DNA of 32,932 nucleotides from the sequence record SRR31156797_1620; one strand, 5' to 3'. Position 1 is the stretch's first letter; each line of letters opens with the position of its first letter. Shown here one piece after another: positions 1 to 18,434 of this stretch. A program made the translations under genes and the position numbers. The notes under the pieces are model-generated. The model was given only the letters and a program-made list of their open reading frames with translations, ran no database searches and had not been told where the DNA came from.

Positions 1-210
1 GTGCTCAAATACGGCGACGCGCTACATTCGTCCTCCACTAAGTCAATGAGGCTACTATCCATTTAAATGTTCAGTTAATCTCCTAATTAAATTTAATAAG
101 CTTAATTATTTGATTATTGAGTTTATTAACCCTATAGATCTGTAAAAACAATGGCTTTCAATGTTTTGAATTTAACGAGTTCTAAACACTTTAATCGGAG
201 TAGTTAAGAG

Positions 211-870
211 ATGAGTTTGCAAAGACCCTTAGCATTAAACGTAATATTGACAACACTGTTCTTCTCCATATGCCTCGCAGTACAAGGTGCCAAGGCGTCA
301 GAAAACCTTGATAAAAAGAATGTCAAAAAAGAGAGTGCTATCCAAAGAACGAGTCAAACAGATTCATGCCAAGCTGCCCTAAGCCGTGTAGAAAAATCAA
401 TGTGTAGTAGTACGGAATTGAAGGCACTTGATTCGAAATTATCGAACATTTATTCCATTGCACTGAACAAAGCCGGAAACAATGAAAGTTACTTAGTTCG
501 TGAACAATCAGGGTGGGTTAAAGGCAAAAATGAATGCTGGAAGCATGAAGATATATACACTTGTATAGAGCAAGAGTACTTGCGCAGAATTGCTTATTTA
601 CAGGCGAAATATCAATTGGTGCCTTCTATTGGGCCATTGTTCTTTGCTTGCGAAGGAAACGCAGCCAATGAAATAGTGCTGACGTACTTTCATACAAACC
701 CGAGAACGTTGGTCACAGAAAAAGGAGATTCGGTATACTTCATGTATTTAGCAACGATTGATCCTTATCGATACCAAGGTAGGAACGAGTATGTTGAGGA
801 AAGAAATACTGAACTTCTGGTTTCTTTAGGCTATAAGAAACCAGAAGAACGTTGCATCGCAAAGCCATAA
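211..870 (+). CDS. Exported LprI/DUF1311 + MliC-like protein (lysozyme-inhibitor family architecture)
   Basis: N-terminal signal peptide. The DUF1311-type Cys pattern is present (C-x9-C, LKALDSKL..Y, EQSGW...NEC, CI...Y..RI..L). The C-terminal MliC-like part (FAC...RYQGRN...C) lacks the usual SASGARY loop. Confidence 0.7.
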   Translation: MSLQRPLALNVILTTLFFSICLAVQGAKASENLDKKNVKKESAIQRTSQTDSCQAALSRVEKSMCSSTELKALDSKLSNIYSIALNKAGNNESYLVREQSGWVKGKNECWKHEDIYTCIEQEYLRRIAYLQAKYQLVPSIGPLFFACEGNAANEIVLTYFHTNPRTLVTEKGDSVYFMYLATIDPYRYQGRNEYVEERNTELLVSLGYKKPEERCIAKP

Positions 871-915
871 TTCTCTGTAAACAAACTTAAATATAGGCAT
901 TAAAAAACACACTAT

Positions 916-1677
916 TTATACGCAGACGCGATCTTTCGCTGTGACATTTCGCTCCTTAGCTATGTTTCGCAATAGAATTAGAGCAAAAATTGCATTTGGA
1001 AAATTAAGTAAAATTGGACCATAGAGCGCCATCGAGTTAGAACCTTCACTGCTTACCTCTGGCGCTGCAGAACCAACAAGAAACAATAAGCAATCCCACA
1101 AAAAGTGGTAAATGATGGCTGTCCATATCGAGCCCGTACGGAGAACTATGGCTAACAATACCAGCCCACTCATACCTGCCGCGATAGACTGCATAATGGC
1201 AGGCCCAAGCTCACCGGTTATAAATACATTCAACGCGTGAACCGCTCCAAACAAAAAAGAAGTCAGGAGAATCGCTGACCAGATAGACATCGCTTGTTCA
1301 AACGCGCGAAATAAAATTCCACGAAACATGATCTCTTCTGAAGTCCCAACAAGGAAAGTATTTAACACAATGAACAATATAACGTTCTCAGTCGGTAACC
1401 CAAAATAGACAAGCCCTGCTAGGAATAAAATGAGATAAACACTAGGAAACCACATGGTGCGAAGAATCGAATACGGCTTGTTAAAACCGATATCCCTCCA
1501 TTTAAAAATGGCAATAGCGATAAGTAACAACGCAATGGCCAACAAGAAATGCCACCCTATTCCTTCGCTAACCAATTCAACCAATGAGACTTCGCTGCCT
1601 GCAATATATCGAGCACCAAGCATTGTGATTAGCACCCATGCAATATAAATAGCGAGGCTTATCAATATCCGTTTCAA
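916..1677 (-). CDS. CPBP/Abi (CAAX protease-like) intramembrane metalloprotease
   Basis: Multiple TM segments with motifs EEIMFRG, LFGAVH and HFLWD. Start moved to TTG 1677, which follows the SD AAGGAAGG. Confidence 0.88.
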   Translation of the reverse strand: MKRILISLAIYIAWVLITMLGARYIAGSEVSLVELVSEGIGWHFLLAIALLLIAIAIFKWRDIGFNKPYSILRTMWFPSVYLILFLAGLVYFGLPTENVILFIVLNTFLVGTSEEIMFRGILFRAFEQAMSIWSAILLTSFLFGAVHALNVFITGELGPAIMQSIAAGMSGLVLLAIVLRTGSIWTAIIYHFLWDCLLFLVGSAAPEVSSEGSNSMALYGPILLNFPNAIFALILLRNIAKERNVTAKDRVCV

Positions 1678-1745
1678 GTAGCCTTCCTTATACCTATTCA
1701 CTAAAACCTGCTCTCAAAGTACTACTCACGCTCTCGTAGGCAGAA

Positions 1746-2729
1746 TCAATCCTGATTGAAGAAGAAAACCAAACTTCCACCTTTAAACGCACTGCCATAG
1801 TTCACAGTCAAACCAATCCCTATATTTTCGATAAAACTGATATCGAAAGGTGGTGTCATCAACCAGCCTAACGTTGCTTCATAATAGAATGTGGTTCCTA
1901 AATTAGCGACAGCGTCGCTTCCGACATCAACCCTTCTAAGCGTGCTATATATTGACTGTTCAGAGGTTCCTATATGACTAAAATTATAGATAGCAGTCGC
2001 ACCGTTAGCGATATACCATCCTTCAGGGTTGCCTATATCCCCGTCATTCGCATCGCCCCAACCGTAGCCATAAAAATAATGACTGCTGGAAAACAATTTC
2101 CATGTTCCCCAATCCTCTTCTTGCTGATAGCTGAATTTGATGTGTGGTTCGTAAATATTAGCCCAAGCTGAAGTGTTGAATAACAGATCGTCAAATACGG
2201 GTTGAATTGCCTTACCGATTACGCTGTTATAAGTCATTGTATTTTGGTAATACATTAAGTGAGAGCCTAACCCTGGCTCAATCCGCCAGTTATCAGTTAA
2301 AGCGTATTCGTAACGATAGGCTATAAACATGTCCAGAACAGTTTGACTTAAATTATCGTCAACCGTTTGGTTATCCGTCCACCTAAGGGACTCTTCGGTC
2401 GCTAAGCCTGAAAAGCGGACCAATAACTCGTGCTTATTCGTCTCATTTTCATCATTCAGCCTAAATGATAGAGGTAACATGGAAATAGCGTATTTTTGTC
2501 TATTCTCAACAGAATCATCAGTACCTAGCTCATCGAACTGGCTATTGAACAAACTGTTTGGATTGAAGTCAGCGAAACCGACAGTGAAAACATCACTGTC
2601 ACTCATGACTACCGTGTAAGCAAAACTATGCTCGAGGAAATTGCTGATAACATCGTAACTCTGTGCATAAACCTTATTGCCACAGACTAGATATAACGAG
2701 AAGACACAAACCAAGCCTTGTTTTGACAC
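1746..2729 (-). CDS. Solitary outer-membrane autotransporter-like beta-barrel protein (Omp_AT/DUF3233 type)
   Basis: Signal peptide, VVMSDSDVFTVGFADFNP motif, amphipathic aromatic-rich strands and C-terminal GGSLVFFFN. Confidence 0.72.
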   Translation of the reverse strand: MSKQGLVCVFSLYLVCGNKVYAQSYDVISNFLEHSFAYTVVMSDSDVFTVGFADFNPNSLFNSQFDELGTDDSVENRQKYAISMLPLSFRLNDENETNKHELLVRFSGLATEESLRWTDNQTVDDNLSQTVLDMFIAYRYEYALTDNWRIEPGLGSHLMYYQNTMTYNSVIGKAIQPVFDDLLFNTSAWANIYEPHIKFSYQQEEDWGTWKLFSSSHYFYGYGWGDANDGDIGNPEGWYIANGATAIYNFSHIGTSEQSIYSTLRRVDVGSDAVANLGTTFYYEATLGWLMTPPFDISFIENIGIGLTVNYGSAFKGGSLVFFFNQD

Positions 2730-3105
2730 TGCGACCCTTTCCTTTTGGTATGTTGGATTTTCATCAAAATATTTTTATTAGCCTAATCATATGCCTAGGC
2801 AGTAGTTAGATATTATTAATTAGCAATCGTTATCTGAACAAGTAAATTCATCTAATTGTTCCCTTAGCCACATATGCAGACGCTCAAATATTCATCGTAG
2901 TTCATAAGTTTACCTCAAATACAAACACCAAACCTACACCTAAGTTAATTCATTGATTTTATTAATTATTATCATTATTAAATTTAATTAATCTTATTTT
3001 CCTCCAGACTGACCTAATCTCACGAAATCGATAATGCCCTTGAAGTTCGTTCTACATTCCTTGGACCTTAAGTAGCAGAATGATTTCTAAATAGTGGAGG
3101 CCTCT

Positions 3106-3945
3106 TTGCGGTTATTAATCCTATCTCTTATTTTGGCAGTAAGCGGCTGTGTGTCTGTTCAAACACCAACAGCTCCCCCAAAAAGCGATGTTGCTTCAAT
3201 TGAAGTCATTGAAGATCTACCAAGCGAAATGCCGAGAGGTACAACTCAGTTCAATCAATCGCAGCTCGTTTTTGTTCATGCTGACCAAGCATCGGAATTT
3301 TTAACCGGCTTAGTCGTACCTGTCCCTTTTGTTACAGGTATTGTCGTTGACTACGTAAACGATAGTGCTGCCGAAGGGTATGAAACAAAATTAAAACAGA
3401 TGCGCGTGTATGACATAGTGAACAACGAACTGGCGAAACAAGATGTGTCACAACTAAATAGTGAAGACTACAAACTATACCCGTTTGTGTTCATTGAAGA
3501 GTGTAATGATGACGTGTATAGGTTGTCACTAGCCTACCAATTGGAAAAAGATGGATGGATAGGGCGTTACTATTATCATCTGCCGACTACGATTCAAATA
3601 GAAGATATAGCCTCCCCAACACTCGAAACGCTAAGTTCCATAGACAATGATTTACACTTTGGCGTCCCAGTACTACTTCAAATTGTAGAGAATGATATTA
3701 AAGGTGAATTACCGCATTCAGGCAAAAAAGTTGAGGTCGGCAGTCTCTATATCGTGGGAGGTAACATCTCTGGGATAATTAGCCCAACAGTGTCTACGTT
3801 TAAAAACGCAGAAATCATTGATGAAACAACTTCGAATCTCACTATTAGTATTCCTGGAGACCCCACCGGCAAGGCAAAGAATGGAGGTATGGCTTTCGGA
3901 ATCCACTATTTCGAAAAGGGTCAATTGCATACTCTTATTCGTTGA
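3106..3945 (+). CDS. Hypothetical lipoprotein
   Basis: SD GGAGG (3096-3100) precedes TTG 3106; lipobox LAVSG-C. No family recognised. Confidence 0.75.
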   Translation: MRLLILSLILAVSGCVSVQTPTAPPKSDVASIEVIEDLPSEMPRGTTQFNQSQLVFVHADQASEFLTGLVVPVPFVTGIVVDYVNDSAAEGYETKLKQMRVYDIVNNELAKQDVSQLNSEDYKLYPFVFIEECNDDVYRLSLAYQLEKDGWIGRYYYHLPTTIQIEDIASPTLETLSSIDNDLHFGVPVLLQIVENDIKGELPHSGKKVEVGSLYIVGGNISGIISPTVSTFKNAEIIDETTSNLTISIPGDPTGKAKNGGMAFGIHYFEKGQLHTLIR

Positions 3946-4054
3946 ATAAAGTATGTAAAGTGTATAAAGAGGCTGGTTCAGACAACGCAATTAGCTGAGT
4001 ATCTAGTTGATTGCTTGTAGTGAGGATGATCTTAAGTATCGAAAAAATCGTCAA

Positions 4055-4119
4055 AAAAAACAAATTATGTGTAGAAAACTGTATGTTTTTTGGGGGGACG
4101 ATTTATGGATTCAGGGACA
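4055..4119 (-). mobile_element. Right end of a second (distal) Tn7-like element extending leftward
   Basis: The minus strand from 4119 reads TGTCCCTGAATCCATAAATCGTCC, with a terminal TGT and CATAA at position 13. Further CATA cores at 4085 and 4069 give 22- and 16-bp spacing, the same as the ffs-proximal right end. Confidence 0.72.
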
Positions 4120-4138
4120 ATATTTTTGCTAGAGCAGA

Positions 4139-4240
4139 TGTCGCTGAAACCATAAGATATCCTAATTACCTAAAGAAAATTAATCAGTTACCAACATAGT
4201 AAAACTATATAGTATCCTAGCATGAAAGCATAAGGTGTCT
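4139..4240 (+). repeat. Tn7-like left end with widely spaced TnsB-type binding sites
   Basis: TGT terminus and CATA-core sites at 4151, 4195 and 4229. CATAAGGTGTC (4229-4239) matches CATAAAGTGTC in the right end (12129-12119, minus) at 10/11. A partial IHF-like AATCAG lies at 4182-4187. Confidence 0.78.
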
Positions 4241-4645
4241 TATTTAACGCTTCCGTTTAACCCTAATGATAATTATTAAAGAAAACTACTTACATACTAT
4301 TCACATCAACTACTTGATTTCATCCAGATGCATATAAATCTCAATGACAAAGCCGCTTGGTAATGACGGTACAACAAATAGGATTTGTGTGATTGTTTTA
4401 CCTATACGCTAATTTTAATGCCAATTATTCATTACAACTTAACAGTTAGAGGCTATAACACGATACCGCGATTGAAACATAGTCCAAACAAATCATCATG
4501 CGCTCTTGAATCGCTGATCCCATTAAGGACTGAGCACGATGATTATCGCTTGCAGACATGATTTGCTTATTCAGAAGAACGGCAGAACTTCTTCAGAGAA
4601 TAACGCCCCAGTTCTTTACTACACGTGTTTAAGTAAAAAAATTAT

Positions 4646-6949
4646 TCATTGATATGTTTCCCATGCCCCCCAAATACTTGCGCTATCTTTTCGGTTCGAT
4701 AGTTTTGTCGCCAACATAGCTTGGACTTCCCTAATGGCTGCAGGAGGAGAATATGAGTCTGTATTGATGAGGTCAGCGACTTGCGACATAAATTCATACG
4801 TCTCATCAGAGACGACATTCCATTGCGATGCAATTACGCTTGATGCTCCAGCATACTGAAACGAAGTGATCAGTGAATTGAAGCTACCCTCTACTTCACC
4901 TGCACCCGCAGTGTTACATGCGGCAAGCAGTACAGAACTGTCGCTGATATCCAAGTTAGCTATCTCATCAGCCTGTAGAATACTATCATTGGATTGATCA
5001 TTAAAATCGATACTCATTGCCAGCCCTGGGTATGGGACTGGATTGCTTTTCGAAGGGAATATCGTATGAGTCGAAAAGCTGATGAAATTCCAGTTTCCCT
5101 GGTTAATTGAGCTCTTGACTGTCGATTCCACAGCTTCTTCCTGCGTTAGCAATAACCGGCGATAACGACGATGCTGCCCTAGTAGAGCCAGAGACTCTAA
5201 TAACGTATCAGGCAAGGCATCCAGCCTGATCACCGTATTCTGACTTTCAAAATAGGGCGACATCTCAAACTTTGGCGGTGGTGGTGCGTAGAACACAGGG
5301 TCAGAGATGGCGAGTCGATTATTGGTACCGCCAGCCTTTTCCTTATTCACTCCGATACGATTTAGTAAGCTGTATCGAGAAACGGACTTTTCTTCCACTA
5401 ACCACTTTTTGCTGCGTGAATTATAAAGCGTCGCGATAGGCAACTGCTCCAAAACCCCATAGGAAACAACTGATATTGCAGGACTGGATATATTTTCAAT
5501 ATCCAGTGTCTTTGTCAGTTTATAGCCGCTTTTACGCGCATCTCTGCGCTCAATGATATTTTGACGATGTGCTGCAATGGCTTGATAAAGAGAATTTGAC
5601 TCAACCACTTTAACCCGAAAGTCGTGAGAATTGATATAATACATCACGCTCTCTGTCCCTAGGTCCACTACATACAGAAGTGTCTCATCCTTTCGAAGAT
5701 TCGACTGGATATTTGTCATATCACTCGCACTGGTTCTCGAAGAAGCTTGGAACTTACTGGCCAGACTAGCAATGCTTTGGATTAAAGATTCATTGTTTAG
5801 CTCGCCGTTTTTTAGCTTCCTGGACAATTCCTGCTGAAGTGAGACTAACTGTTTATAGCGTTGTTCGGATTTCCCTTCCAACCTCATTACCGGTGCGACC
5901 GGATTAGTCACAAACAAATGTTGGGATATTTCGAAAACAACCTTCTGGACTTCCTTACTGTTGGGGTAGGCATTAAGAAGTGATACTAACAGCGCGTTAA
6001 TTTGGGGCTTCATTTTAATTTGTCGACCGTAATCATAGGCATTTAAAATGAGTCTGAATGAGCGAACGGCGTCCTCCAAAAATGCGCGTCTTTGAGGCTC
6101 TTGGTTAAATGCACTCAATAGATTGATTAGGAGTTGGTTTTCAAGTGATATGTTTTCAGGTTTTCTCGAAAAGTATTCGCCAATTTCCTTGTCCAAACTG
6201 TAGCGATGGGCAGAACCTTTGAGTAACACGATTTCTTTCATCACTGCGATAGAAAGCAGGTTATCAGATACAAATGTTGTCTTTTTATCTATGTAGCCAC
6301 CGGCATCAAACGCTCTTACCTGTTTGTTTAACTCGGAATAGGCCCCCTCTGAAAGTAGCCGTTGTAAATAATCCAAATATCGTGTGGATGCATGATAAGG
6401 GACAAGCGTCGATGAAATAAACACTTGGTTGTCTTGCCGTAACGCTGCAATCAACCGTTCCTGATCTTCTCTGGCATTATAGTCTGATGGATGGGTTAAA
6501 GAGAACGCATCGAGTCTGAGCTCATCATCCTCTATATCAGAGTCATTAATCACTTGCCTTGCGTAATAGTACGCCAGTGTTTGTCGACCAGATTTAATGT
6601 ACAAGGACAGCAGTTGACCAAGTATTTGTTGATATTCTGATAAGTAATAATCTTTGATCGGGTAGATTTCACTTTTCAGTGTTAGCAACTGATTTTCTGC
6701 CGCAACTAACTCTGTCCCAAGTAATACTTGCAGATCCGAGATATTCAGTGCAAGCTCCAGTGTATCCAAAGGGTCCGAGCAAGCTGCGGAGGCCTTTTGG
6801 TAGACCTTCTTAAGGTTATCCAATTGAGTGTAGTTAGGGTTTTGTAACCATGATCCCATTAAGGCCCTGTGCTGACGGTTTACGTCTTCTAGGTTACATG
6901 AATATGCTGTCGAAACAAACAATAGCCCAAGTAGTAGCAGAAACTTCAT
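4646..6949 (-). CDS. Exported CHAT-domain (caspase-like, clan CD) protease with helical/TPR-like N-terminus
   Basis: Signal peptide MKFLLLLGLLFVSTAYS. CHAT motifs: SYGVLEQLPIATL, WLVEE, ISDPVF, LDALPDTLLE, FISFSTH (His628), VLLAACNTA (Cys678), FQYAGASSVIASQWNV, WGAW. Confidence 0.9.
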   Translation of the reverse strand: MKFLLLLGLLFVSTAYSCNLEDVNRQHRALMGSWLQNPNYTQLDNLKKVYQKASAACSDPLDTLELALNISDLQVLLGTELVAAENQLLTLKSEIYPIKDYYLSEYQQILGQLLSLYIKSGRQTLAYYYARQVINDSDIEDDELRLDAFSLTHPSDYNAREDQERLIAALRQDNQVFISSTLVPYHASTRYLDYLQRLLSEGAYSELNKQVRAFDAGGYIDKKTTFVSDNLLSIAVMKEIVLLKGSAHRYSLDKEIGEYFSRKPENISLENQLLINLLSAFNQEPQRRAFLEDAVRSFRLILNAYDYGRQIKMKPQINALLVSLLNAYPNSKEVQKVVFEISQHLFVTNPVAPVMRLEGKSEQRYKQLVSLQQELSRKLKNGELNNESLIQSIASLASKFQASSRTSASDMTNIQSNLRKDETLLYVVDLGTESVMYYINSHDFRVKVVESNSLYQAIAAHRQNIIERRDARKSGYKLTKTLDIENISSPAISVVSYGVLEQLPIATLYNSRSKKWLVEEKSVSRYSLLNRIGVNKEKAGGTNNRLAISDPVFYAPPPPKFEMSPYFESQNTVIRLDALPDTLLESLALLGQHRRYRRLLLTQEEAVESTVKSSINQGNWNFISFSTHTIFPSKSNPVPYPGLAMSIDFNDQSNDSILQADEIANLDISDSSVLLAACNTAGAGEVEGSFNSLITSFQYAGASSVIASQWNVVSDETYEFMSQVADLINTDSYSPPAAIREVQAMLATKLSNRKDSASIWGAWETYQ

Positions 6950-6951
6950 AG

Positions 6952-8190
6952 TTACATTAAGCCTTCACCTAACGGCGTACGATTCAAGGTGCCCAAATAA
7001 CCGATAACGGAAAACTCTTTCGAAGACTGATCCGTAAAGTCTACATAATCCTTCCTCAGCAAAGAGTATTTTTTGTCCATAGAACTATAGTAATTTCCTT
7101 TCGGTTTAGGTACGTCCAGAACATCACGATACATCACGTGAGTTGCCACAACTAGTTCATCAATGGCTGATTTTGGTGAAGACTTACTCAGCACAATATT
7201 GACCGCTTCACTGAGAGAGTTCTTGAACTGTTTCTGTCGTTCAGAGTTTAAAAGATGGAAATATCGAATCAAGACTTTTGAATAGTCACCATTAGACGGC
7301 ATCCTCTCGGATTCTGGGACCGATTCATAGCATGACCATAGGTAGATGAAATATAATCTAATTTTTACATCATCCGAATTCGACTCAGTAGAGTCCAATT
7401 TACTTAGGGCTAGCTTAAGGTCTTGAGGTATAAGAATCCGTTGGCCACTTTGAATGTACATGGCCACCATAGCATCTAGATTTGGGGAACGTTCCGATTT
7501 AGGTATCTTATTCCATAGTGTATTCACATACTGTACACGTTTGCCTTTTTTCTGGTCACCAAGAATAACTTTTGACAGTGTGATCTGATAAGCTTGAGCC
7601 CCATTCGTTTTGGACAATTTGCCCTCTAGCAGTTGCCATTCTCGTAAATCTTGACCAAGTCTGAGGTAGTCATGCTTAAGATTCTTTATCTGGCGCTCAT
7701 CGTACCGGACGTCAATAAAATTCGACATAAAGATGGCAGAACCGTAAGGGTTTTGGCGACTAGTATGCGCGAGCGTATTGATAGCTGAATCTGCTGACAT
7801 CCCATCAACAGTTCCTCCAGTTTCAGGTGTGTTCAACTTCGAATGATACAATTGGTTCGTTCCTTTTATCCCCTGTTTAACAGCGTTAGCATCTTGCTCC
7901 AAAGCGAAATTAGAATCTCGATACAGCGCTTTAGCTAACGCTCTGACATGTTTCTGTGCCTGATCATATTGTCTTTCTTGATGGGCCAAATAGGCTTTGA
8001 AATACTCGCATACCGCTATCGAAGCTGTATCTTTGTATTTCCCACAATCCCACTTTTTGATGGTTTGATTATGTGTTTTAACATCACTCGGTTCACTATT
8101 TAGCAATTGAAGCGGAGTCGTTGCAGCGTAAGTACCAAACGAAACTGATACTCCTAAAAGGAAAAGCAATGGTTTATTCATGACAAACAT
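6952..8190 (-). CDS. Exported alpha-helical protein with a TPR-like repeat
   Basis: SD GGAG and a signal peptide ending TYA. TPR-like segment YFKAYLAHQERQYDQAQKHVRAL. The stop lies 2 nt before the CHAT start. Confidence 0.7.
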   Translation of the reverse strand: MFVMNKPLLFLLGVSVSFGTYAATTPLQLLNSEPSDVKTHNQTIKKWDCGKYKDTASIAVCEYFKAYLAHQERQYDQAQKHVRALAKALYRDSNFALEQDANAVKQGIKGTNQLYHSKLNTPETGGTVDGMSADSAINTLAHTSRQNPYGSAIFMSNFIDVRYDERQIKNLKHDYLRLGQDLREWQLLEGKLSKTNGAQAYQITLSKVILGDQKKGKRVQYVNTLWNKIPKSERSPNLDAMVAMYIQSGQRILIPQDLKLALSKLDSTESNSDDVKIRLYFIYLWSCYESVPESERMPSNGDYSKVLIRYFHLLNSERQKQFKNSLSEAVNIVLSKSSPKSAIDELVVATHVMYRDVLDVPKPKGNYYSSMDKKYSLLRKDYVDFTDQSSKEFSVIGYLGTLNRTPLGEGLM

Positions 8191-8201
8191 ATGGCTCCAT
8201 A

Positions 8202-9077
8202 CTAATGGTCAAAATTAAGTGAATCACGTATTAAGGCTTTTAAACGGATAGAAACTCCCTTACTCTCTACAGTCATTGGTTTCTGACTTTTTCCAATGTA
8301 TTTGTACTCTAGGTTCGTCTCACAGACATATTTGTAACCTATTTGACAAAGATGCATAGTTACCAAAAGATCTGTGGGTACACTCGACTGCTGATTTTGT
8401 GTTAGCTGATTGAGAGCCTTGTCTAAATCGTACGAGTCAATTTGAAGCGAGCTTTGTGCGATTTTTTGGTTGGCATGATAAAAGGTTATCTTGTAAGCCC
8501 CCTCATTTAGTCCCGGATTCTTAAACCCTTCAAAAAATGTTCCCATCCGTACCGTTTTGGTACCTTGTGTGAGGATATAGCTTACTTGCGAATAATCTGG
8601 GGCTTTATTACACACAAGTTTCAAAAATGGCACCGAAACGTCCGTTTGTGGCAATAAAATTTGGTCAGGCGACAGGCATTTTAACTCCCCTTCAATCACT
8701 TCATCTCCCCGAACGACCCCGCCAAGCGTTCTCTGCCCTGCAACCTTCACATCGTCACCGATGAACATACCAGGAAAGGTGATCACCGCTGGACCATACA
8801 ATTCTTCACGTTCGACTTTCCCGTAAATCTGCTTGTACCAGACCAACATCCCGCCAGAGTCCAGAGAAACCTCAGTTCCCTCATAAATCGTATTGCTCGC
8901 CTTGAGCGCGGTCTGTCCTGTTTGATTGGGTAAAAGTGCCGTAACTTCCCCTTTTACTTCGACAACTAACGCTTTCATCTCCTTGATGTTGCCAGCCTGA
9001 GTATGGAATGACAGGCACAGAAACAGCATAATGAGGAAGCTCCTTGAGGTGGTCTGCATGATTATTTTTTTTATCAC
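8202..9077 (-). CDS. Exported protein with FecR-like N-terminal beta region and a DUF928-like GGxxRG linker / beta-sandwich part
   Basis: Signal peptide ending TQA. ALVVEVKGEV...LKASNTIYEGTEV resembles FecR N-termini, followed by RTLGGVVRG. Start is GTG 9077 (SD AAGG) or ATG 9059. Confidence 0.6.
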   Translation of the reverse strand: MIKKIIMQTTSRSFLIMLFLCLSFHTQAGNIKEMKALVVEVKGEVTALLPNQTGQTALKASNTIYEGTEVSLDSGGMLVWYKQIYGKVEREELYGPAVITFPGMFIGDDVKVAGQRTLGGVVRGDEVIEGELKCLSPDQILLPQTDVSVPFLKLVCNKAPDYSQVSYILTQGTKTVRMGTFFEGFKNPGLNEGAYKITFYHANQKIAQSSLQIDSYDLDKALNQLTQNQQSSVPTDLLVTMHLCQIGYKYVCETNLEYKYIGKSQKPMTVESKGVSIRLKALIRDSLNFDH

Positions 9078-10389
9078 GGTCGAGTACCTTTGCTGTTGTT
9101 AATAAGACAATGAAGATAGCCAGCAACAATGGTAACGTCAGACTCAGAGACAATTGGTACTCTGAGAAGACAATGCTAGCGTATAGATATGATAAGTAAA
9201 TCAAGACGCCTATGATGGCAAATGCACAGGCAAAAACAGAAAGCTGCCTATATCGTGACTCAAGAAGAGTTGAAGATACAATTCCCCAGTAAAGCACTAA
9301 CAAGACAATACAGATCAAGGTGTAAAACGTATAAGCCACCTTAAGGGAATGGCTAGCTGTTACGTCACTAGCTGGGTGCAGGTAGTAATGACCATCAACT
9401 AGGTTCAAGTACGCACTTATATGCGCATAGACGCCTGGCAGTTTTCCATCATGTCCTGCCTGTTTGGATAACCCTGACCAGATCAGTACTCTGTTGAAAA
9501 ATGAGTCTGTACTTTGCGAACCAATATAAAAATGATCTTGATTGACATCCCATGTGGTCGCCACAAAAACCGTCTTACCTTCCACATCAATCAAGTCATT
9601 TTCTAACTTAAACGCCAAGTCCCACGCACTATAGGTTCTGTTATCCAACTCTGACAAATTGTTGGGAACCACTAACCAATATCGCCCATTTGAAACAAGG
9701 TTGTCTGGAATGCCGACTGCACTCTTTCGCAGTTCTGTATTATTTCCAGCATTATGCGAACGGTGAAACACAGCTAATGACAAAGAGGGTACCCTTTCAT
9801 TATTTACTACCTGATAATAGACCAGACTATTGACGGCACCATAGCGATCTTCGGTGTCAAAGAGCGACAGTTTTCCCCAGTTGTACATTAGTATGTCACC
9901 AGGGAACAGGTTCTTAGGAGGCGCAACTTCAATAGCACGGTTTCCTCGGTAAACAACCTGGCTACCTACTACTATCTTGTTTTTCAGTATTTCAGATATA
10001 GGGAACGCTTCTCCTGAGTAATCGAACAAATAGTCCAGAACGACCAGTTTCGCCTCGTGTTTCACAAGCAATTCGGCCAACTCTAGAATATCTCTTCGGG
10101 TTTCAGGAAAAGAGGTTTCGTGTGAAAACTGTCTGTCGAATGTCACCAACGCAATATCCGACATGGAAGGGCTCTGATACTCTTGTTCGAAGGAGCGGAT
10201 CGCGCTCACTGAAAACACATCATTACCACTGAAGTAGTCCAAACTTGAGATCACTATCAGCGCTGTCACGATCGGAAACAAAAACGTGAGCATTACCATT
10301 TTTATCAATCTTGATGTGTACGTACCCGACATCCATTGAACAGAAGAAAATACCTGCTGACTCTTATAATTTCTAAGGACCCGTTTCAA
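8881..10389 (-). CDS. CHASE2-domain membrane sensor lacking a cytoplasmic output domain
   Basis: N-terminal TM. CHASE2 motifs: DIALVTFD, AKLVVLDYLFD, PSLSLAV, GKTVFV, LPGVYAH...NL. Three C-terminal TMs follow, then only a short tail that overlaps the next gene. Start codon uncertain. Confidence 0.85.
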   Translation of the reverse strand: MKRVLRNYKSQQVFSSVQWMSGTYTSRLIKMVMLTFLFPIVTALIVISSLDYFSGNDVFSVSAIRSFEQEYQSPSMSDIALVTFDRQFSHETSFPETRRDILELAELLVKHEAKLVVLDYLFDYSGEAFPISEILKNKIVVGSQVVYRGNRAIEVAPPKNLFPGDILMYNWGKLSLFDTEDRYGAVNSLVYYQVVNNERVPSLSLAVFHRSHNAGNNTELRKSAVGIPDNLVSNGRYWLVVPNNLSELDNRTYSAWDLAFKLENDLIDVEGKTVFVATTWDVNQDHFYIGSQSTDSFFNRVLIWSGLSKQAGHDGKLPGVYAHISAYLNLVDGHYYLHPASDVTASHSLKVAYTFYTLICIVLLVLYWGIVSSTLLESRYRQLSVFACAFAIIGVLIYLSYLYASIVFSEYQLSLSLTLPLLLAIFIVLLTTAKVLDRDKKNNHADHLKELPHYAVSVPVIPYSGWQHQGDESVSCRSKRGSYGTFTQSNRTDRAQGEQYDL

Positions 10390-11014
10390 AATACATCAAT
10401 CCATGAGTTCATAAAACACGCATCACTCTAGGTATGCACTTACATAAACCGTTTAAGGTAAGAGCACCAATAAGTAAACCAGTCTTTCATATTAAATAAA
10501 TATTAGTAAATCAAGATGAATAAGTGACAATTATGAGAACTAGATCGTCAATCAATGGCTCTAATCTATATAGTTCACCGTAATCTACGTGCGACTAATA
10601 GAGTAATCCTAAACTTAAAAACCACTTCTTAACGTTAACCACATATTAATAGGTTTTAATGTGACTGCATTTACCAATACTTATATACGCTTTAAAAATT
10701 CCATAGTTTCAATAAGTAATAATACACAATCAGAAAAATACAGATCATTCGTTACCATCAACGAACAAATAGTACATTTCTCACTGTATTCATACAAAAA
10801 TGTCGTTAAACTTCAATAAAACTTCTTCTATATGTTCAGTTTCAACGAAAAGAAGAGTCTGCATTTAACAAGAACTACCAACATCAAATAAAATATATGG
10901 TTAACCGAGAGTTTAAAAAATAATGACGCTTTACCCTTGTAAATAGCAACGGCGCATTAAACTACCGCACTATAATGATTTATTCTTGTCATTCCTGACC
11001 TAGAGGCAATTACG

Positions 11015-11800
11015 ATGAAAATTAATAGAATAAGATTATGTGTGATGCTATTGGTAAGTTTCGGGGGAGTGTATTCTGCTTCCGCAGGAAACTACGAACA
11101 TGGCAATTATCCCATGTTTTCACATTCACAATTATTTTCAACGGGCGACACGGTTAGCAGTCGCCCAAATAAAATCAGCAATGCAATCGAATCAAACCAA
11201 ACTGTTAGCCTAGGATACGACAACAAATTTCGCAGTGCAAAACGCTATATATTTCCAGAACAATATTTTGGAAAGAGCTATTACCCCGACAAACTAATGA
11301 CTAGTCAGTTTGTTGATTCTTTTCAACAAGTCATCGCAGAGTTTGCATGTGCAGAATACCGATTCAGAAATAGGATGCCAGAACAAACTGAGTGTGACGG
11401 TTATATTGGAGATCAAAACAAAGTAGAGGAAATGCCTTTTGTATCTGGTCAATATAGTTCAGCAAGAATTGAAGTTAATCGTGACTCTAAACGAGAACAA
11501 GTAAGCTTCTACACTTACTTGAAGAGTTCATCAGAGCGACCTTTAAGTAGCACTTTTGGAGCGGTACACCAATTAGGTACTTTATTTGGAAGAATGGCAA
11601 GCAGTAAAAGCTTAGTGCTAAGTCTTAATTTAGAAGCGTTTACTCTTGATAGCGACGGGATTCGGTTATCTCCAATAAATAACAAACCCCTGACCTATTT
11701 TATTGTCATCCCCAAATCTGCAGATATAGCAAAACAGAAGAACCAAGATACAGCAGCTCGGTTTGTCTTGCAAAACGCAAAACTGATCTTACTTAGGTAG
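11015..11800 (+). CDS. Hypothetical secreted protein
   Basis: SD GAGG, signal peptide ending ASA, 261-aa ORF. No family recognised. Confidence 0.75.
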   Translation: MKINRIRLCVMLLVSFGGVYSASAGNYEHGNYPMFSHSQLFSTGDTVSSRPNKISNAIESNQTVSLGYDNKFRSAKRYIFPEQYFGKSYYPDKLMTSQFVDSFQQVIAEFACAEYRFRNRMPEQTECDGYIGDQNKVEEMPFVSGQYSSARIEVNRDSKREQVSFYTYLKSSSERPLSSTFGAVHQLGTLFGRMASSKSLVLSLNLEAFTLDSDGIRLSPINNKPLTYFIVIPKSADIAKQKNQDTAARFVLQNAKLILLR

Positions 11801-11953
11801 TTCAAAAACCATCGCCAAGCTGTAAGCACAATTGTCTAATTTACTTATCAGTGAAATAACCGTGATTAAATAGTGGGCTGGCTTCTATATCAAGAACTGA
11901 ATAGCCACCGAGTCGGATATTAGTTCGCCTTTTCTAATATTACTTCTCGTACT

Positions 11954-12073
11954 CTACAGGTTACAGCAATGTTCCAATGAGCTTTCGCACATGATGGTGC
12001 AGCCATTTTTTACACTAACAAACTTATAAACGTTTTTGTTTGCTGAAGGTTTTAGAAGATTGTGAACGCACAT
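11954..12073 (-). pseudogene. tnsA: Truncated/frameshifted TnsA endonuclease N-terminus
   Basis: Hand translation gives MCVHNLLKPSANKNVYKFVSVKNGCTIMCESSLEHCCNL* behind SD AAGGA. This matches the recalled I-F3 CAST TnsA start (MYIRNLRKPSPNKNVFKFAS.K....MCESSLE), and it sits directly inside a right end, where tnsA belongs. Confidence 0.85.
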
Positions 12074-12104
12074 AACCTGTCCTTTTTCTGTTGTAAAAAA
12101 CAAC

Positions 12105-12161
12105 CAAAATAGGCTTTGGACACTTTATGGGTTTTATTGGGATGTTTTATGATATCAGATA
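12105..12161 (-). repeat. Degenerate Tn7-like right end with closely spaced TnsB-type sites
   Basis: Cores at 12151 (CATAAAACATCC), 12129 (CATAAAGTGTCC) and a weak one at 12113. The terminus reads TAT rather than TGT and is 2 bp short relative to the left end. Confidence 0.7.
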
Positions 12162-12167
12162 TCAGAT

Positions 12168-12275
12168 GGGTGGAAGCCCCAGCCACATCCCGGCACACAC
12201 GTCATCCGCTGTGGCTGCTTCCTTCCGGATCTGACCAAGTTCACGAACTAGTGTTGCGGGAGGACCAGGGCCTCC
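12168..12275 (-). ncRNA. ffs: Signal recognition particle 4.5S RNA
   Basis: The minus strand contains the conserved GGTCAGATCCGGAAGGAAGCAGCC domain IV, with pairing 5' GGAGGCCCTGG and 3' CTGGGGCTTCC ends. Confidence 0.97.
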
Positions 12276-12312
12276 ATAGAGCATCTTTGGTTTGCGCCAA
12301 AGAGTGGGAAGG

Positions 12313-12341
12313 ATTATCAAGCATCGACTGCTTCATTGCAA
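12313..12341 (-). promoter_or_regulatory. Sigma70 promoter of ffs
   Basis: -35 TTGCAA (12341-12336), 17-bp spacer, -10 GATAAT (12318-12313). Confidence 0.7.
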
Positions 12342-12401
12342 GTCTAATTCCCAGTTATGTCTCTGTTTACGAATCAATTGGCTATCAATTAGGCAAATCG
12401 A

Positions 12402-14426
12402 CTAATTATGTTGCGAACCGTTTTGCTTTGCGCGAATCGGAGTAACAATAGCAGCCCGTTTATGCTTTGCTTCATACATCGCTTGATCGGTTTGGTGCAT
12501 CACCTCTTGCAATGACATGTATTTACCACGATTGGCAGAGATCCCCACCGCTGCGGTCACTTCAAAGCTGACATCTCTTTCAACATCAACAAAGATAAAA
12601 CGCTTAAGATACGCACGTAGCTCTTCCAGTTTATCGACTTTGATGTTGCCCACTAACACAAACTCATCACCTCCGATACGGTACGCTCGACCTTTCCATA
12701 CCTGCGCAATACGTTGAGAAAACTGCTTTAGGACTTTATCGCCGATCTCATGCCCGTAATTATCATTGATTTGTTTGAAGTGGTTTAGATCCAAATAGAC
12801 AAGCGTACACTTACCAGCAATTCCTCGCTTATATCGACGATACAGGGATCGACGGTTACGAAGTTTGGTCAAGTTGTCGGTATTGGATTGTTGATGTAGA
12901 TACAAAGCGACCATGACGAGCAGAGCCATCGCGATGAGGAATAACCATTGGCTGTGACGGGTAAAGCGCTTTTCGACCGCTAAAGTAGCGCGCCAATCCG
13001 GTAGGTAATCGTAGGTTTTCACTATTTTTTGTGTATCCATCATTTTGATGGCTCTTGAAAACAAAGAGGATAGTGTTTCGCCAAACGGTGTTTTGGTAAA
13101 ACCGATTGCCGTATCAAAAGAATAAAAGCTACCAATCATTGTGTCTTCAACAAATGGTACTAAGTCATCCGACTCTCTTAAGAATTGATTAAAGTTCCCT
13201 CGACTCATGACAATATAATCTACTTCTTTCGAATATAGAGCATCGATTAAGTCAGCTTGAGCGGGTACCGTTATTAACGTTTTCCTTGGTAACATTCGGC
13301 TTAATAGATCTTCGAAGAAATCATCTTTCACAACACCAATGCGTTCTGCGACGAGTTCAGACACATTACTGTAGACAAAATCTTTGTAGCCTTCCCTTTT
13401 CACCAGAATGGCTTCTGGGTGATAGTAACTATCACTAAAATTAACCAGTTCTTTGCGCTGTTCAGTCACGGTTAGCGGCGCAATAATATCAATTTTATGT
13501 TGGCGAATATCATTGTACATACTCTCCCAAGACTCGCTGGCTGTACTGGCTAATTCGCATTTCAGCAATAAAATGTCGCACGCTTTAAAAACCACATCCG
13601 CGCTGATACCACTGACTTCACCATCAAGGTGATAAGTTGTGTATGGCGGAACATTCTCTAGTTTTATTTTGAGCGGACGCTGCAAATTGATGCCACCATC
13701 AATCACAGCCTGACGCAAAGCATGTTTACGAATATCAAACTGATACTTTTGGATAGACTCGCGCAATAGTTTCTGAACTTTCGCAGAATGAACGTAATGT
13801 TCGATCTGATTCAACAGTTCGTTGTGTTTATCCAACGGCGCAATAATAGAAACGGGTTGAATGGACAATTGATCATTGAGCAACTGAGCATCAAAACCTT
13901 TTAATAGCATCGGCTTAAGCTGATTAATTGCATCGACCGTACCATCCACCGCTGAAAGCTCGAGTAATCGTTGAGCGTGGGCTGAACCGTAATAGTTCAC
14001 TAGCTTAATTTGAGGAAAATTCTGCTTAATTAAATCACCATAAATCGTGCCGGCAGGCACACCGACTACACTCATATCCTCCAACTTATTGTTGGTTTTA
14101 CTGAATAAATAGGTGTACTCAATGTTGGTTGGACGCGAGAAAGAAAAACGCTTTTCCCGTTCAGGCGTGTAAGTAACATTCGCTGCAAAGTCACTTTTAC
14201 CCGCTTCTACAGACTTTAAAATGGAATCGAAACTGGGGTAATTTACGTATTCAACATCGATATTAAAGTGATAGGCGACATCATCAAAAATGACGCGCGT
14301 CACTACATCGTCAGCTTCTGTTGCGACAAGGTATGTTTTGATTGAATCATTTGCAGCAAAGGCTGGCGACTGTGCAAGACACAGTAACACCAACAACCTA
14401 CTACAAATCGTTAGAGCCCTAGACAT
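12402..14426 (-). CDS. cdgH: Diguanylate cyclase with two periplasmic substrate-binding (family 3) domains
   Basis: Signal peptide, tandem PBP domains, TM, DNLTKLRNRR and an intact GGDEF with no RxxD I-site. Architecture and synteny match V. cholerae CdgH. Confidence 0.85.
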   Translation of the reverse strand: MSRALTICSRLLVLLCLAQSPAFAANDSIKTYLVATEADDVVTRVIFDDVAYHFNIDVEYVNYPSFDSILKSVEAGKSDFAANVTYTPEREKRFSFSRPTNIEYTYLFSKTNNKLEDMSVVGVPAGTIYGDLIKQNFPQIKLVNYYGSAHAQRLLELSAVDGTVDAINQLKPMLLKGFDAQLLNDQLSIQPVSIIAPLDKHNELLNQIEHYVHSAKVQKLLRESIQKYQFDIRKHALRQAVIDGGINLQRPLKIKLENVPPYTTYHLDGEVSGISADVVFKACDILLLKCELASTASESWESMYNDIRQHKIDIIAPLTVTEQRKELVNFSDSYYHPEAILVKREGYKDFVYSNVSELVAERIGVVKDDFFEDLLSRMLPRKTLITVPAQADLIDALYSKEVDYIVMSRGNFNQFLRESDDLVPFVEDTMIGSFYSFDTAIGFTKTPFGETLSSLFSRAIKMMDTQKIVKTYDYLPDWRATLAVEKRFTRHSQWLFLIAMALLVMVALYLHQQSNTDNLTKLRNRRSLYRRYKRGIAGKCTLVYLDLNHFKQINDNYGHEIGDKVLKQFSQRIAQVWKGRAYRIGGDEFVLVGNIKVDKLEELRAYLKRFIFVDVERDVSFEVTAAVGISANRGKYMSLQEVMHQTDQAMYEAKHKRAAIVTPIRAKQNGSQHN

Positions 14427-14632
14427 AGACGTTTATTGTATGTTTTTTTGAATTTTTAATATTATTTAATAATATCTAAACTATTCTAGATTGCACAATT
14501 TTTCATTTAATGAGCATCATAAGTTTGCACTAGATTTGATTTTTATATGCATGACGACTCATTTAGTGCTGAACCACACAAATCGATAGCTAGAATTGGA
14601 TTTGTTAATTATAGACTCAGGATTTGGCAAAC

Positions 14633-14935
14633 ATGGACCAATTTTTAACTCAGATTTTTACGGTTATTTATGACATTCCGGAAGGAAAAGTATCAACTTA
14701 CGGAGAAATCGCGAAAATGGCGGGTTACCCAGGTTATGCTCGCCATGTGGGTAAAGCATTAAGCAAGCTACCGAAAGGAAGTAAAATGCCATGGTATCGA
14801 GTGATCAACAGTAAAGGCGAAATCTCTTTGACTGGCCCAGACTGGGAACGCCAACGCGAACGTTTAGTTTCAGAAGGCATTGCGGTAAGCAGTTTGGGGA
14901 AGATTTCGCTCAATAAATACAAGTGGCAGCCATAA
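14633..14935 (+). CDS. atl: Alkyltransferase-like protein (MGMT family, YbaZ/Atl)
   Basis: IPEGKVSTYGEIA, ARHVG and PWYRV (Trp in place of the catalytic Cys). Confidence 0.88.
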   Translation: MDQFLTQIFTVIYDIPEGKVSTYGEIAKMAGYPGYARHVGKALSKLPKGSKMPWYRVINSKGEISLTGPDWERQRERLVSEGIAVSSLGKISLNKYKWQP

Positions 14936-14945
14936 CGCTGCCACT
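14922..14945. terminator. Hairpin between convergent atl and ybaY
   Basis: AGTGGCAGC-N6-GCTGCCACT. Confidence 0.55.
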
Positions 14946-14968
14946 CTCCAACACTCTGAACTATCGTA

Positions 14969-15406
14969 TTACTTTGAACTTACACCGACCAAACGCATAT
15001 CAACATGTTTAGTGCTGTCGCCATCGGTAATAACACCATAACTGGTATCGGTGATAAAGCGCAGTTTGCCGTTAACCTCAATACGCGCAGATACTGTATA
15101 ACGGTGCTTAGGCTGAATTTTCGAACTGTCATAAGAGAGATCAAAAGTCAGTGGGACTTGATGGCCATTGGTGATGAACTGCTGCTTAGCAATAACCTCG
15201 GCAGGCGCGTCCATCTTAGACACATCTTGCAGCGATACAGTAACTTTCGCATCATCCGGTAGCAGAATACGTTCGCGGTATGCAATTGTGCCTGTCACTG
15301 ACTGAATTTTTTGTTCTGTCATTTTTGTCCCCGATGATTCGCATCCAACAAGAAATACCGAGCCCATCACTAACGCTGCTATATATAAAAGTGCTTTTTT
15401 CATCAT
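14969..15406 (-). CDS. ybaY: YbaY-family lipoprotein
   Basis: Lipobox LVGC; VTGTIAYRERILLP, LQDVSKMDAPA and GHQVPLTFDL. Confidence 0.9.
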   Translation of the reverse strand: MMKKALLYIAALVMGSVFLVGCESSGTKMTEQKIQSVTGTIAYRERILLPDDAKVTVSLQDVSKMDAPAEVIAKQQFITNGHQVPLTFDLSYDSSKIQPKHRYTVSARIEVNGKLRFITDTSYGVITDGDSTKHVDMRLVGVSSK

Positions 15407-15625
15407 ATTTTCTAGCCCTATTTGATTTATAAATCATTATAGATTCAACATCATACCCTGTCATTGTATGCTTTACTTATTGACAAATAACTGACTCAAT
15501 CAACAAACTGTACATTCGAGCGATTAAGAAATGTCTGGGTAAATATTCGTTTAACATGCCCAATACGCATTTTGAAATGACTTGAGTACAATAATTAAGA
15601 TTATAAAAAACAAAGGTGTGAGGTT

Positions 15626-16486
15626 ATGAGTAAACCATTGCAAGAATTATTAAATTTGCTGCAATTAGAAAAATTAGAAGAAGGTTTATACCGCGGTGAG
15701 AGTGAGAACTTAGGTTTACCACAAGTGTATGGGGGTCAAGTCATTGGTCAAGCACTCTCTGCGGCTCACTACACCGTCGATCCCACTCGTACCGTACACT
15801 CTTTCCATAGCTACTTTTTATACCCGGGCGATCCGGAAAAACCGATTATTTATGATGTAGAAAACCTTCGTGACGGAAGAAGTTTTAGTACTCGCCGCGT
15901 TAAAGCTATCCAAAACGGTCGGCCAATTTTTTACCTTACCGCCTCTTACCATGGCGAGGCTGAAGGGTTTGATCACCAAAATACCATGCCTGATATCCCA
16001 GGCCCTGAAAACTTTGCGTCGGAGTCTGAACTGGTCGCCAACGTTGCACATCTACTGCCGGAAAAACTACAGAAAATGTTCTGTGGTGAAAAGCCGATTG
16101 AGATGCGTCCTGTTACCGTCATCAACCCAATGAAACCGCAAAAAGCCGAGCCTAAGCAATACCTTTGGATGCGTGCCAACGGAACCATGCCAGACAATCA
16201 GTTAATCCATCAATACTTGTTGGGCTATGCATCCGATTGGGGATTCTTAGTGACAGCTCTTCACCCACATGAAGTGTCTTTACTAACACCAAAGTTTCAG
16301 GTCGCAACTATCGACCACTCCATTTGGTACCACCGCCCATTTAAAATGGACGACTGGTTGCTGTTTGCGATCGAAAGCCCGACCGCGAGTAACACCCGTG
16401 GATTAGTTCGCGGAGAAATCTATAACCGTCAAGGTGACTTAGTGGCAACCGCGGTACAAGAAGGTGTCATGAGATTTAAGCCTTAA
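15626..16486 (+). CDS. tesB: Acyl-CoA thioesterase II
   Basis: VYGGQVIGQAL, HSFHSYFL, RDGRSFSTRRV, ATIDHSIW and VQEGVMR. Confidence 0.97.
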   Translation: MSKPLQELLNLLQLEKLEEGLYRGESENLGLPQVYGGQVIGQALSAAHYTVDPTRTVHSFHSYFLYPGDPEKPIIYDVENLRDGRSFSTRRVKAIQNGRPIFYLTASYHGEAEGFDHQNTMPDIPGPENFASESELVANVAHLLPEKLQKMFCGEKPIEMRPVTVINPMKPQKAEPKQYLWMRANGTMPDNQLIHQYLLGYASDWGFLVTALHPHEVSLLTPKFQVATIDHSIWYHRPFKMDDWLLFAIESPTASNTRGLVRGEIYNRQGDLVATAVQEGVMRFKP

Positions 16487-16487
16487 A

Positions 16488-16567
16488 TAGACTCAAGTTA
16501 CCTCAAAATGAGCTCCCGAAAGGTGAGTCTTAATCACTGAACTAGTATCTTGAGGTTACTAGATATA
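16488..16567. repeat. Degenerate ERIC-like miniature inverted-repeat element
   Basis: Imperfect inverted arms AGTTACCTCAAAAT and ATCTTGAGGTTACT (12/14) with TA-like termini. Resembles the dispersed Vibrio CAAGTAACCTCAAGAT repeats. Confidence 0.55.
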
Positions 16568-16571
16568 GCTC

Positions 16572-16602
16572 TTTACCTTCCCCTTGGGTCAAGGCTTACG
16601 CT
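16572..16602 (+). promoter_or_regulatory. MerR/CueR-type promoter-operator
   Basis: -35 TTTACC, 19-bp spacer, -10 TACGCT, with the dyad CCTT-N11-AAGG overlapping the spacer. ACCTTCCCCTTG is the same as the recalled E. coli copA operator left half. Confidence 0.78.
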
Positions 16603-16628
16603 AACTATGAAACCAAAGGGAGGACATT

Positions 16629-16742
16629 ATGGGATGCTGTAATCAACCACCGAAAGGCGGTTCAACCGAAATCAAACCATTACTCAAAGCTTTTGCTGGC
16701 TTACTTATCGCTATCTTGCTGATAGCATTTGTATTTGGTTAA
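16629..16742 (+). CDS. 37-aa single-TM microprotein with N-terminal MGCC motif
   Basis: Strong SD AGGGAGG. Sequence MGCCNQPPKGGSTEIKPLLKAFAGLLIAILLIAFVFG*. It fills the intergenic gap behind its own promoter and falls below the ORF-track cutoff. Confidence 0.8.
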   Translation: MGCCNQPPKGGSTEIKPLLKAFAGLLIAILLIAFVFG

Positions 16743-16750
16743 TCTTAAGC

Positions 16751-17215: not shown

Positions 17216-17228
17216 ACAAAACCCAACA

Positions 17229-17251
17229 TTAAGAGAAAAATTTTCTCTTAA
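17229..17251. promoter_or_regulatory. Palindromic Lrp-family operator
   Basis: TTAAGAGAAAA-A-TTTTCTCTTAA has perfect 11-bp arms and an AG-N9-CT core. A weaker copy lies near 17273-17288. Confidence 0.65.
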
Positions 17252-18407: not shown

Positions 18408-18434
18408 TGTCACTGAGCCTAACGGAGCTGTTTT

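Follow-up and report, generated by a model that had tools for sequence, protein, structure and literature searches.

A probable immobilised remnant of a type I-F3b CRISPR-associated transposon beside ffs in a Vibrio

CRISPR-associated Tn7-like transposons (CASTs) of type I-F3b insert about 48 bp from the protospacer, and in one I-F3b sub-branch the final spacer is 10–12 bp shorter and the insertion point is shifted accordingly (Petassi et al. 2020 preprint). A review table names Tn6900/AsCAST as an example of a type I-F3b CAST at ffs, the gene for the small signal recognition particle (SRP) RNA. The I-F3a element Tn6677, or VchCAST, belongs to another branch whose attachment sites are given in the review as guaC and yciA; it resembles the elements considered here in the general architecture of its ends, each of which has three TnsB sites and an 8-bp terminal sequence containing TG (PMC10201428). 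Tn7-like remnants at nrdB and islands with multiple ends have been reported from Acinetobacter baumannii (PMC11014353). Here we describe a window of 32,932 nucleotides (nt), the whole stretch of DNA analysed, from sequence record SRR31156797_1620. We conclude, with a probability of roughly 0.88, that positions 4139–12161 represent an immobilised remnant of a type I-F3b CAST at ffs. An original prediction, made from the letters of the window, had proposed that a gutted CAST of the I-F3 type lies at the homing site beside ffs, and the two ends and the tnsA stub indeed match complete elements in three Vibrio genomes (G027, G267 and G065). The features that define the putative remnant and its target are the following.

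4134–4138, no strand: left flank GCAGA, a candidate copy of the target-site duplication that matches 12162–12166 at 4/5 positions.
4139–4300, plus strand: intact left end with a TGT terminus and three spaced CATAA-type TnsB sites (alignment A2 and window-free profile).
11954–12073, minus strand: tnsA stub of 39 codons in all, with 34 conserved codons (12073–11972), 5 unrelated codons and a stop (tblastn and alignment with G065).
12074–12151, minus strand: right-end interior, comprising TnsB sites 2 and 3 and a conserved stretch that leads up to tnsA (window-free profile run with nhmmer, E 4.1e-23, 78.4 bits).
12152–12161, minus strand: 10-nt filler in place of the terminal 33 nt of the right end, which comprise the TGT tip and the first TnsB site (alignment A1, blastn and window-free profile).
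12162–12166, no strand: right flank TCAGA (read on the plus strand), the other candidate copy of the target-site duplication; in G267 these same 5 nt separate CCGCCCA from the TGT terminus.
12174–12270, minus strand: ffs, the attachment-site gene (Rfam RF00169, 70.5 bits, E 6.4e-14, full length 1–97).
12213–12232, minus strand: protospacer within ffs; the final spacer of intact relatives, a short one of 20 nt, matches it (17/20 for G065, 16/20 for G267).

The left end is as predicted, with a TGT terminus at 4139 followed by spaced CATAA sites. A profile made from the left ends of seven relatives, with the window excluded, aligns over 4135–4295 at E 8.2e-31 (103.6 bits). In alignment A2, about 160 nt of the window align with seven left ends of other genomes, and the left end of G001 is 80% identical to that of the window over 156 nt. 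A 3262-nt contig from metagenome run X2 matches the window from exactly 4139, and its 389 preceding letters match nothing in the window, which gives this position the appearance of a mobile-element boundary. Just inside the left end, at 4314–4396, contigs from runs X5 and X2 have about 290–325 different letters replacing about 20–80 nt, a difference that points to an indel polymorphism between lineages.

On the ffs side, blastn aligns window 11969–12151 with G065 at 92.9% identity over 184 nt and with G010 at 91.8%. This stretch takes in sites 2 and 3, the conserved region preceding tnsA and the opening 34 codons of that gene, and at 12118–12130 it contains the site-3 core without a single change. 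Intact right ends of relatives run from a TGT tip through site 1, an A-run and site 2 to site 3. Similarity to these ends by blastn halts at 12151, which is their position 34, and the window-free right-end profile aligns solely by its positions 39–147. Alignment A1 and the pairwise alignment with G065 place a gap of about 19–21 nt here, and the TG terminus is absent. The original prediction had read this region as an inverted, decayed right end next to ffs with a 15/19 match to the first site. The end itself is real and so is the match, at 12159 on the minus strand, but the damage is not point decay only, with 10 nt standing in for the terminal 33, and the matched sequence is orthologous to right site 2, not to site 1. 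The 15-of-19/20 match pairs left site 1 with right site 2 plus filler; 12159 is the only other place in the window that matches left site 1 at 15/20 or better, and shuffled windows average 0.5 such matches. The filler and flank form a 7-nt tandem repeat (12153–12166), and the same 7 nt follow CCACCCA at loci L001 and L002. The filler may therefore be a duplicated flank rather than a decayed tip. In run X5, one contig that reaches ffs runs on at 12164 into 27 letters in which, by eye, the intact right tip of the family can be read in reverse complement.

The tnsA stub ties this end to the transposon genes of complete elements. Searching by tblastn with TnsA of G267 and G273 yields 31/47 identities (E 2.6e-14) across window 12103–11963, and the alignment with tnsA of G065 is near-identical to about 11972 and unrelated past there. 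Four X2 contigs part from the window at exactly 11972, and by eye their continuation resembles the TnsA sequence of G065. Together with the 92.9% DNA identity to G065, the tblastn match bears out the stub that had been proposed inside the right end. Pfam TnsA has no match to the stub even at E 10, because the stub lies upstream of the Pfam domain (residues 55–132 in relatives).

The two ends also share the predicted 11-mer at 10/11 positions (4229–4239 versus 12129–12119). The window holds 340 inverted pairs, and the end pair is outside the 25 longest. The left/right inverted repeat does not stand out inside the window alone; the proof lies in the comparison with relatives.

We searched 285 Vibrio species genomes for the 17-nt terminus and found it, with at most one mismatch, in 43. 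Among 38 loci fetched around these matches, 18 scored as family ends (9 right-type and 9 left-type) and 20 did not. Three genomes carry elements with the following gene sets, assigned by Pfam and tblastn.

G027 (L042/L043): 25.4 kb between termini, with TnsA, TnsB, TnsC, an Xre-type helix-turn-helix (HTH) protein, cargo, TniQ, Cas8, Cas7, Cas6 and a CRISPR array.
G267 (L044/L045): 26.5 kb between termini, with the same gene set as G027 and a CRISPR array.
G065 (L056/L057): gene set as in G027, with cas8 apparently split, and a CRISPR array.

The window has the end sequences of these three CASTs (A1, A2), two of which, in G065 and G267, also lie at ffs. Unlike the window, these elements measure 25–26 kb (G027, G267) and keep tnsABC, xre, tniQ-cas and arrays, and their cargo is a type I restriction-modification system and a VasX/PAAR-like protein, with no CHASE2-CHAT operon such as the window carries. 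The cas8 gene of G065 (L056:9897–13195) appears as two tblastn pieces about 1.2 kb apart, as though interrupted by an insertion.

The position of the right end relative to ffs agrees with guided insertion. The right end adjoins ffs in G267, G065 and several others, 3–6 nt after CCACCCA, though not in G027; in the window the junction falls 12 nt past the Rfam end of ffs, that is, CCACCCA plus 5 nt. In G065 and G267, the 20 nt that follow the last typical repeat match ffs at 16/20, with mismatches at 3 and at 6, 12 and 18; against the ffs of the window, the G065 spacer mismatches only at positions 6, 12 and 18. Of 2000 shuffles, 0.05% give a spacer match of at least 16/20. The distance between the end of the match and the right end is 49 bp in G065 and 51 bp in G267, and the junction of the window is 51 bp from the protospacer. 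The claim that the element homed to ffs with its tnsA-proximal right end next to the target thus holds, both by the abutting right ends of G267 and G065 and by a junction at the guide-predicted distance. The last spacers (L056:15116–15205 and L044:~6070–6160) are about 20 nt long and are followed by a diverged repeat, and their mismatches to ffs recur every sixth base. G065 and G267 fit the short-final-spacer sub-branch of I-F3b. G027 and G273 each have a perfect 5-bp target duplication; that of G267 is offset. In the window the flanks agree at 4/5, as had been claimed, and read TCTGA and TCTGC in the orientation of ffs, with the right junction damaged. Such a match alone is weak evidence of a target duplication; flanks and 51-bp spacing together fit a guide-directed insertion.

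The locus accordingly shares with described I-F3b CASTs at ffs the Tn7-like ends, the right end and tnsA beside ffs and a junction about 49–51 bp from the protospacer, and its relatives have xre, tniQ-cas8-cas7-cas6 and an array with a short, 20-nt, ffs-matching last spacer. It differs in that the window copy keeps just 34 tnsA codons and has lost its right tip; the likeness to Tn6900 is one of description. The A. baumannii islands (PMC11014353) offer a parallel in which elements repeatedly enter one fixed site and later suffer deletions, leaving several ends and immobile cargo, but as that paper presents them they involve TniQ/TnsD-type elements in another genus, whereas the family of the window is CRISPR-guided at ffs.

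No trace of the remaining machinery was detected. Proteins of relatives (for the tniQ-cas operon, of two relatives) were searched by tblastn against the whole window: TnsB, TnsC, TniQ, Cas8, Cas7, Cas6 and the HTH regulator gave no match better than E 0.09, and TnsB and TnsC none better than E 0.3. Pfam domains of tniQ-cas8/5-cas7-cas6 are likewise absent from the open reading frames (ORFs) of the window. A cas6 homologue was not found in the window, where no dedicated search for repeat arrays was made. With tnsA broken at about 11972, these results agree with the proposed loss of tnsBC, tniQ and Cascade. The 3′ part of tnsA and tnsB, tnsC, xre, tniQ, cas8, cas7 and cas6 are lost, and the array probably likewise.

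Taken together, the comparison suggests the following history. By analogy with its intact relatives, the ancestor would have inserted downstream of ffs under the direction of a guide RNA, right end first, about 51 bp past the protospacer. An internal deletion, possibly in a single event, would then have run from tnsA codon 35 into the cargo and taken the rest of tnsA, tnsB, tnsC, xre, tniQ, cas8, cas7, cas6 as well as the array; that these genes were lost is shown by the searches above. Separately, the right end lost its terminal 33 nt with the TG tip and the first TnsB site, as the alignments show. What remains is the intact left end, sites 2 and 3 of the right end, a tnsA stub of 39 codons and the cargo nearest the left end, a four-gene envelope operon and one more secreted ORF. 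In VchCAST, terminal positions 1–3 and the TG dinucleotide are essential, as is a spacing of about 8 bp between tip and site 1, such that removing 1 bp or adding 2 bp abolishes transposition (PMC10201428). Since the TG terminus is gone and no first TnsB site stands at the right spacing, the element is expected to be immobile, and its cargo would therefore now be fixed chromosomal DNA. Judged by these published end requirements, excision or mobilisation would no longer be expected, even in trans.

A further end lies on the far side of the left end.

4040–4119 (inner edge approximate), minus strand: second right-type end, solitary and decayed, that stands back-to-back with the left end (terminus match and window-free profile).

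The 17-nt terminus is present here at 4119–4103 on the minus strand with 2 mismatches (0.10 matches expected by chance). The first 25 nt are identical to the right end of G001 at 22/25 positions, the layout is right-type (site 1, A-run, degenerate site 2), and the window-free right-end profile matches at E 2.4e-4. TnsA-like coding after this end was not found by tblastn. The end faces away from the left end and is 19 bp off, which corresponds to the 5-nt flank plus 14 nt. The locus is a tandem array of ffs, element 1 (right end to left end) and the solo right end of an older element. With this solo end near 4119, the empty-site sequence that had been predicted for related strains would therefore not simply be native DNA. 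A left end of the older element was not found in window 1–4100, nor were additional ends anywhere in the window. The second end stands 14 nt farther from ffs than the family's usual junction. Differing spacer lengths were considered as the cause of this offset and are unsupported: the second end is closest to the same sub-family, and G010 stacks elements 4 nt apart.

Several points weigh against a single immobilised I-F3b CAST. The duplication is only 4/5, and the original right junction is unreadable as the terminus is gone. A common insertion origin of the left and right ends is not proven. Neither an empty site nor an intact progenitor with this cargo was found, and the gene for the CHAT-domain protein of the cargo has a match at E ≤ 1e-10 in 0/285 Vibrio species genomes. 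The homing spacer, when read as a 32-mer, is not significant against ffs (16/32, equalled by 24% of shuffles). Immobility is drawn from experiments on a different I-F3 element and is to that extent an analogy. Finally, the window holds no cas gene or tniQ, and the I-F3b assignment depends entirely on the ends and the tnsA stub being homologous to those of elements that have these genes.

Among the alternatives, the one that fares best is a composite origin, in which the left end with the cargo and the right end with the tnsA stub come from two tandem ffs insertions that were fused by a deletion. Tandem arrays at ffs are frequent: G010 has back-to-back ends, G167 and G074 have left ends of this family directly against those of a second one, and the window itself has the second right-type end. 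The flanks of a 5.7-kb mini element in G167 do not match, and those of the window agree at only 4/5. However, the nearest types are G001, G010 and G065 for the right end and G001 for the left end, so that one sub-family is compatible with both; the 4/5 flanks, with TCTGA shared with G267, suit a single insertion; and the same cargo occurs in four other runs, one of which ties it to the same left end. We therefore regard a composite as unlikely. That the element could still be moved in trans by a cognate CAST, as a non-autonomous mini-CAST, is considerably less probable. The left end is intact, two right-end TnsB sites are left and cognate I-F3b CASTs are common in Vibrio, but the TG terminus and site 1 are gone, the first site still present no longer stands at its original distance from the tip, the requirements reported for VchCAST (positions 1–3, TG and spacing; PMC10201428) stand against it, and genes for TnsB, TnsC and TniQ-Cas were not found in the window. 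A Tn7-like ancestor without CRISPR guidance (for example, one targeted by TnsD/TniQ), or end motifs arising by chance, would suit a window with no cas or tniQ gene and an inverted repeat not above background inside it, but is highly improbable given profile matches at E 8e-31 and 4e-23 to the ends of elements with TniQ-Cas8-Cas7-Cas6 and arrays, the 92.9% DNA identity to the G065 CAST and a junction at the guide-predicted distance from the ffs protospacer.

Decay of this kind extends beyond the window. Twelve Vibrio genomes with right-type ends of this CAST family were examined, of which seven have a full-length tnsA (G027, G065, G126, G164, G204, G267 and G273). In the other five, tnsA is absent or fragmentary.

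G001 (L004:12268–12400): no tnsA.
G010 (L048:4946–5402 and 19851): tnsA of about 120 amino acids (aa).
G042 (L018): right end fused to the tnsA of another family.
G165 (L033): tnsA partial.
G167 (L047:897–6619): tnsA stub of about 31–33 aa in a 5.7-kb mini element with GroEL and Hsp20 genes.

Such gutted CASTs are frequent in Vibrio. A full-text literature search, whose reach fell short of the Petassi supplementary tables, found no published description of gutted I-F3 CASTs. Tandem stacking, which also involves a second CAST-like family whose ends differ, is seen in G010, G074 and G167. This second family, with its own tnsA, is found at ffs in L001:12256–12700, L002:12256–12700, L047:6620–6665 and L023, stacked on the first. 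Among the gutted or truncated copies, one right end is reduced to a single site with a TAT tip. On contig C1 of G001, the closest genome, an intact right end at ffs (112584; L008) is followed by what is, by eye, an IS3-type transposase fragment, with no tnsA, and the matching left end lies 522 kb away (635077; L010), which suggests a rearrangement or a mis-join in the metagenome-assembled genome (MAG).

The window leaves the knowledge of how CASTs work unchanged, as it holds a decayed member of a described family at a described attachment site. It indicates that an island derived from a CAST stays recognisable after every transposase and cas gene has gone, since end sequences and a 34-codon tnsA stub suffice; gene-based CAST surveys would miss such islands. 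It also documents a case of elements being inserted, gutted and stacked at the ffs hot spot, the decay being mapped to the base, which bears on the loss of target immunity and on the fixation of cargo. A broader possibility, which we put forward tentatively and think has perhaps a modest chance of being right, is that the CAST served as a one-way vehicle for a rare envelope module, the vehicle having been disabled and the cargo domesticated under purifying selection in several Vibrio lineages. If this were true, recurrent gutting (5/12 genomes) would be a regular Vibrio route to fix cargo and to clear target immunity for the next stacked element.

The cargo comprises four co-oriented operon genes on the minus strand and one ORF on the plus strand, and all of these reading frames are intact.

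4646–6949, minus strand: CHAT-domain (caspase-like) protease of 767 aa (PF12770, E 5.3e-27, 95.4 bits against a cut-off of 24).
6952–8190, minus strand: secreted protein of 412 aa (from the translation).
8202–9059, minus strand: secreted beta-rich protein of 286 codons (285 aa and stop), from a very small family (from the translation).
8881–10389, minus strand: CHASE2-domain membrane protein of 502 aa, first gene of the operon (PF05226, 43.5 bits against a cut-off of 26.3, residues 69–339).
11015–11800, plus strand: ORF of 261 aa with a signal-peptide-like start (from the ORF list).

By eye, signal-peptide-like starts are present in the 286-aa, 412-aa and 767-aa CHAT proteins and in the 261-aa ORF. 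The CHASE2 frame extends about 180 nt into the next gene (8881–9059), which may reflect either a true overlap or the loss of a stop codon. Residues H628 and C678 of the CHAT protein, which we take to be its catalytic His/Cys dyad, are invariant in 6 sequences, the window protein and 5 homologues. Among 5.8 billion proteins it has 3 close full-length homologues, at 93, 88 and 79% identity; full-length conservation at 79% identity argues that the gene would be functional in general. The same 5.8 billion proteins include 5 homologues of the 286-aa protein, and a set of 1.84 billion representatives contains 3 clusters of it. Vibrio harveyi and V. vulnificus are among the source names given for homologues of the cargo proteins. 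Its AlphaFold model has a mean predicted local distance difference test (pLDDT) score of 64, and Foldseek returned only weak Ig-like and MtxA-C matches, with a best template-modelling (TM) score of 0.41; a 'FecR-like' assignment made by eye is supported by neither. The 412-aa protein has no match in Pfam, NCBIfam or PDB sequences, and the 261-aa ORF none in these or in PADLOC. For the 412-aa protein and a 291-aa ORF, the protein atlas gives only unnamed or weak TPR-like and MtxA-like neighbours. Searches of PDB sequences with the cargo proteins gave nothing below E 0.4. A defence system was considered and is unsupported, with PADLOC matching 0/6 proteins and NCBIfam 0/5 cargo proteins.

Contigs about 95–98% identical to the cargo are present in four other runs (X2, X3, X14 and X5), in which uncovered parts prove nothing. 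One contig of 7210 nt covers 4210–11173, and one run links the same cargo to the same left end. A contig bridging the empty site was not seen in these four runs. Selection for retention of the cargo is plausible; a single deletion would remove all of the machinery at once, and intact cargo alone therefore does not demand it. The cargo would constitute an uncharacterised secreted caspase-like protease system with few known homologues, and a functional study could be worthwhile.

The surrounding DNA identifies the host. The ffs-side flank, 12083–24317, is 84–89% identical to a Vibrio MAG (L004, genome G001) and 72–79% identical to three other Vibrio genomes; the source of the window is a Vibrio. 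Similarity to L001–L003 ends at 12156–12164, a few bases beyond ffs, and that to L004 continues to 12083, below which the window is variable island DNA. No conserved native gene downstream of ffs is common to the flanks of G267, G273, G065 and L001–L004, and the far edge of the island therefore cannot be placed. None of the genes in these flanks matches window 1–4100, this segment was not found beside ffs in the genomes examined, and GC content fails to separate island from core. On the core side, a GGDEF protein with solute-binding domains is encoded at 12402–14426 and a YscW-type lipoprotein at 14969–15406. Farther along, at 24179–31338, chorismate-binding, thiamine pyrophosphate (TPP) enzyme, hydrolase, enoyl-CoA hydratase-type, MenC-type and AMP-binding domains suggest a menaquinone gene cluster.

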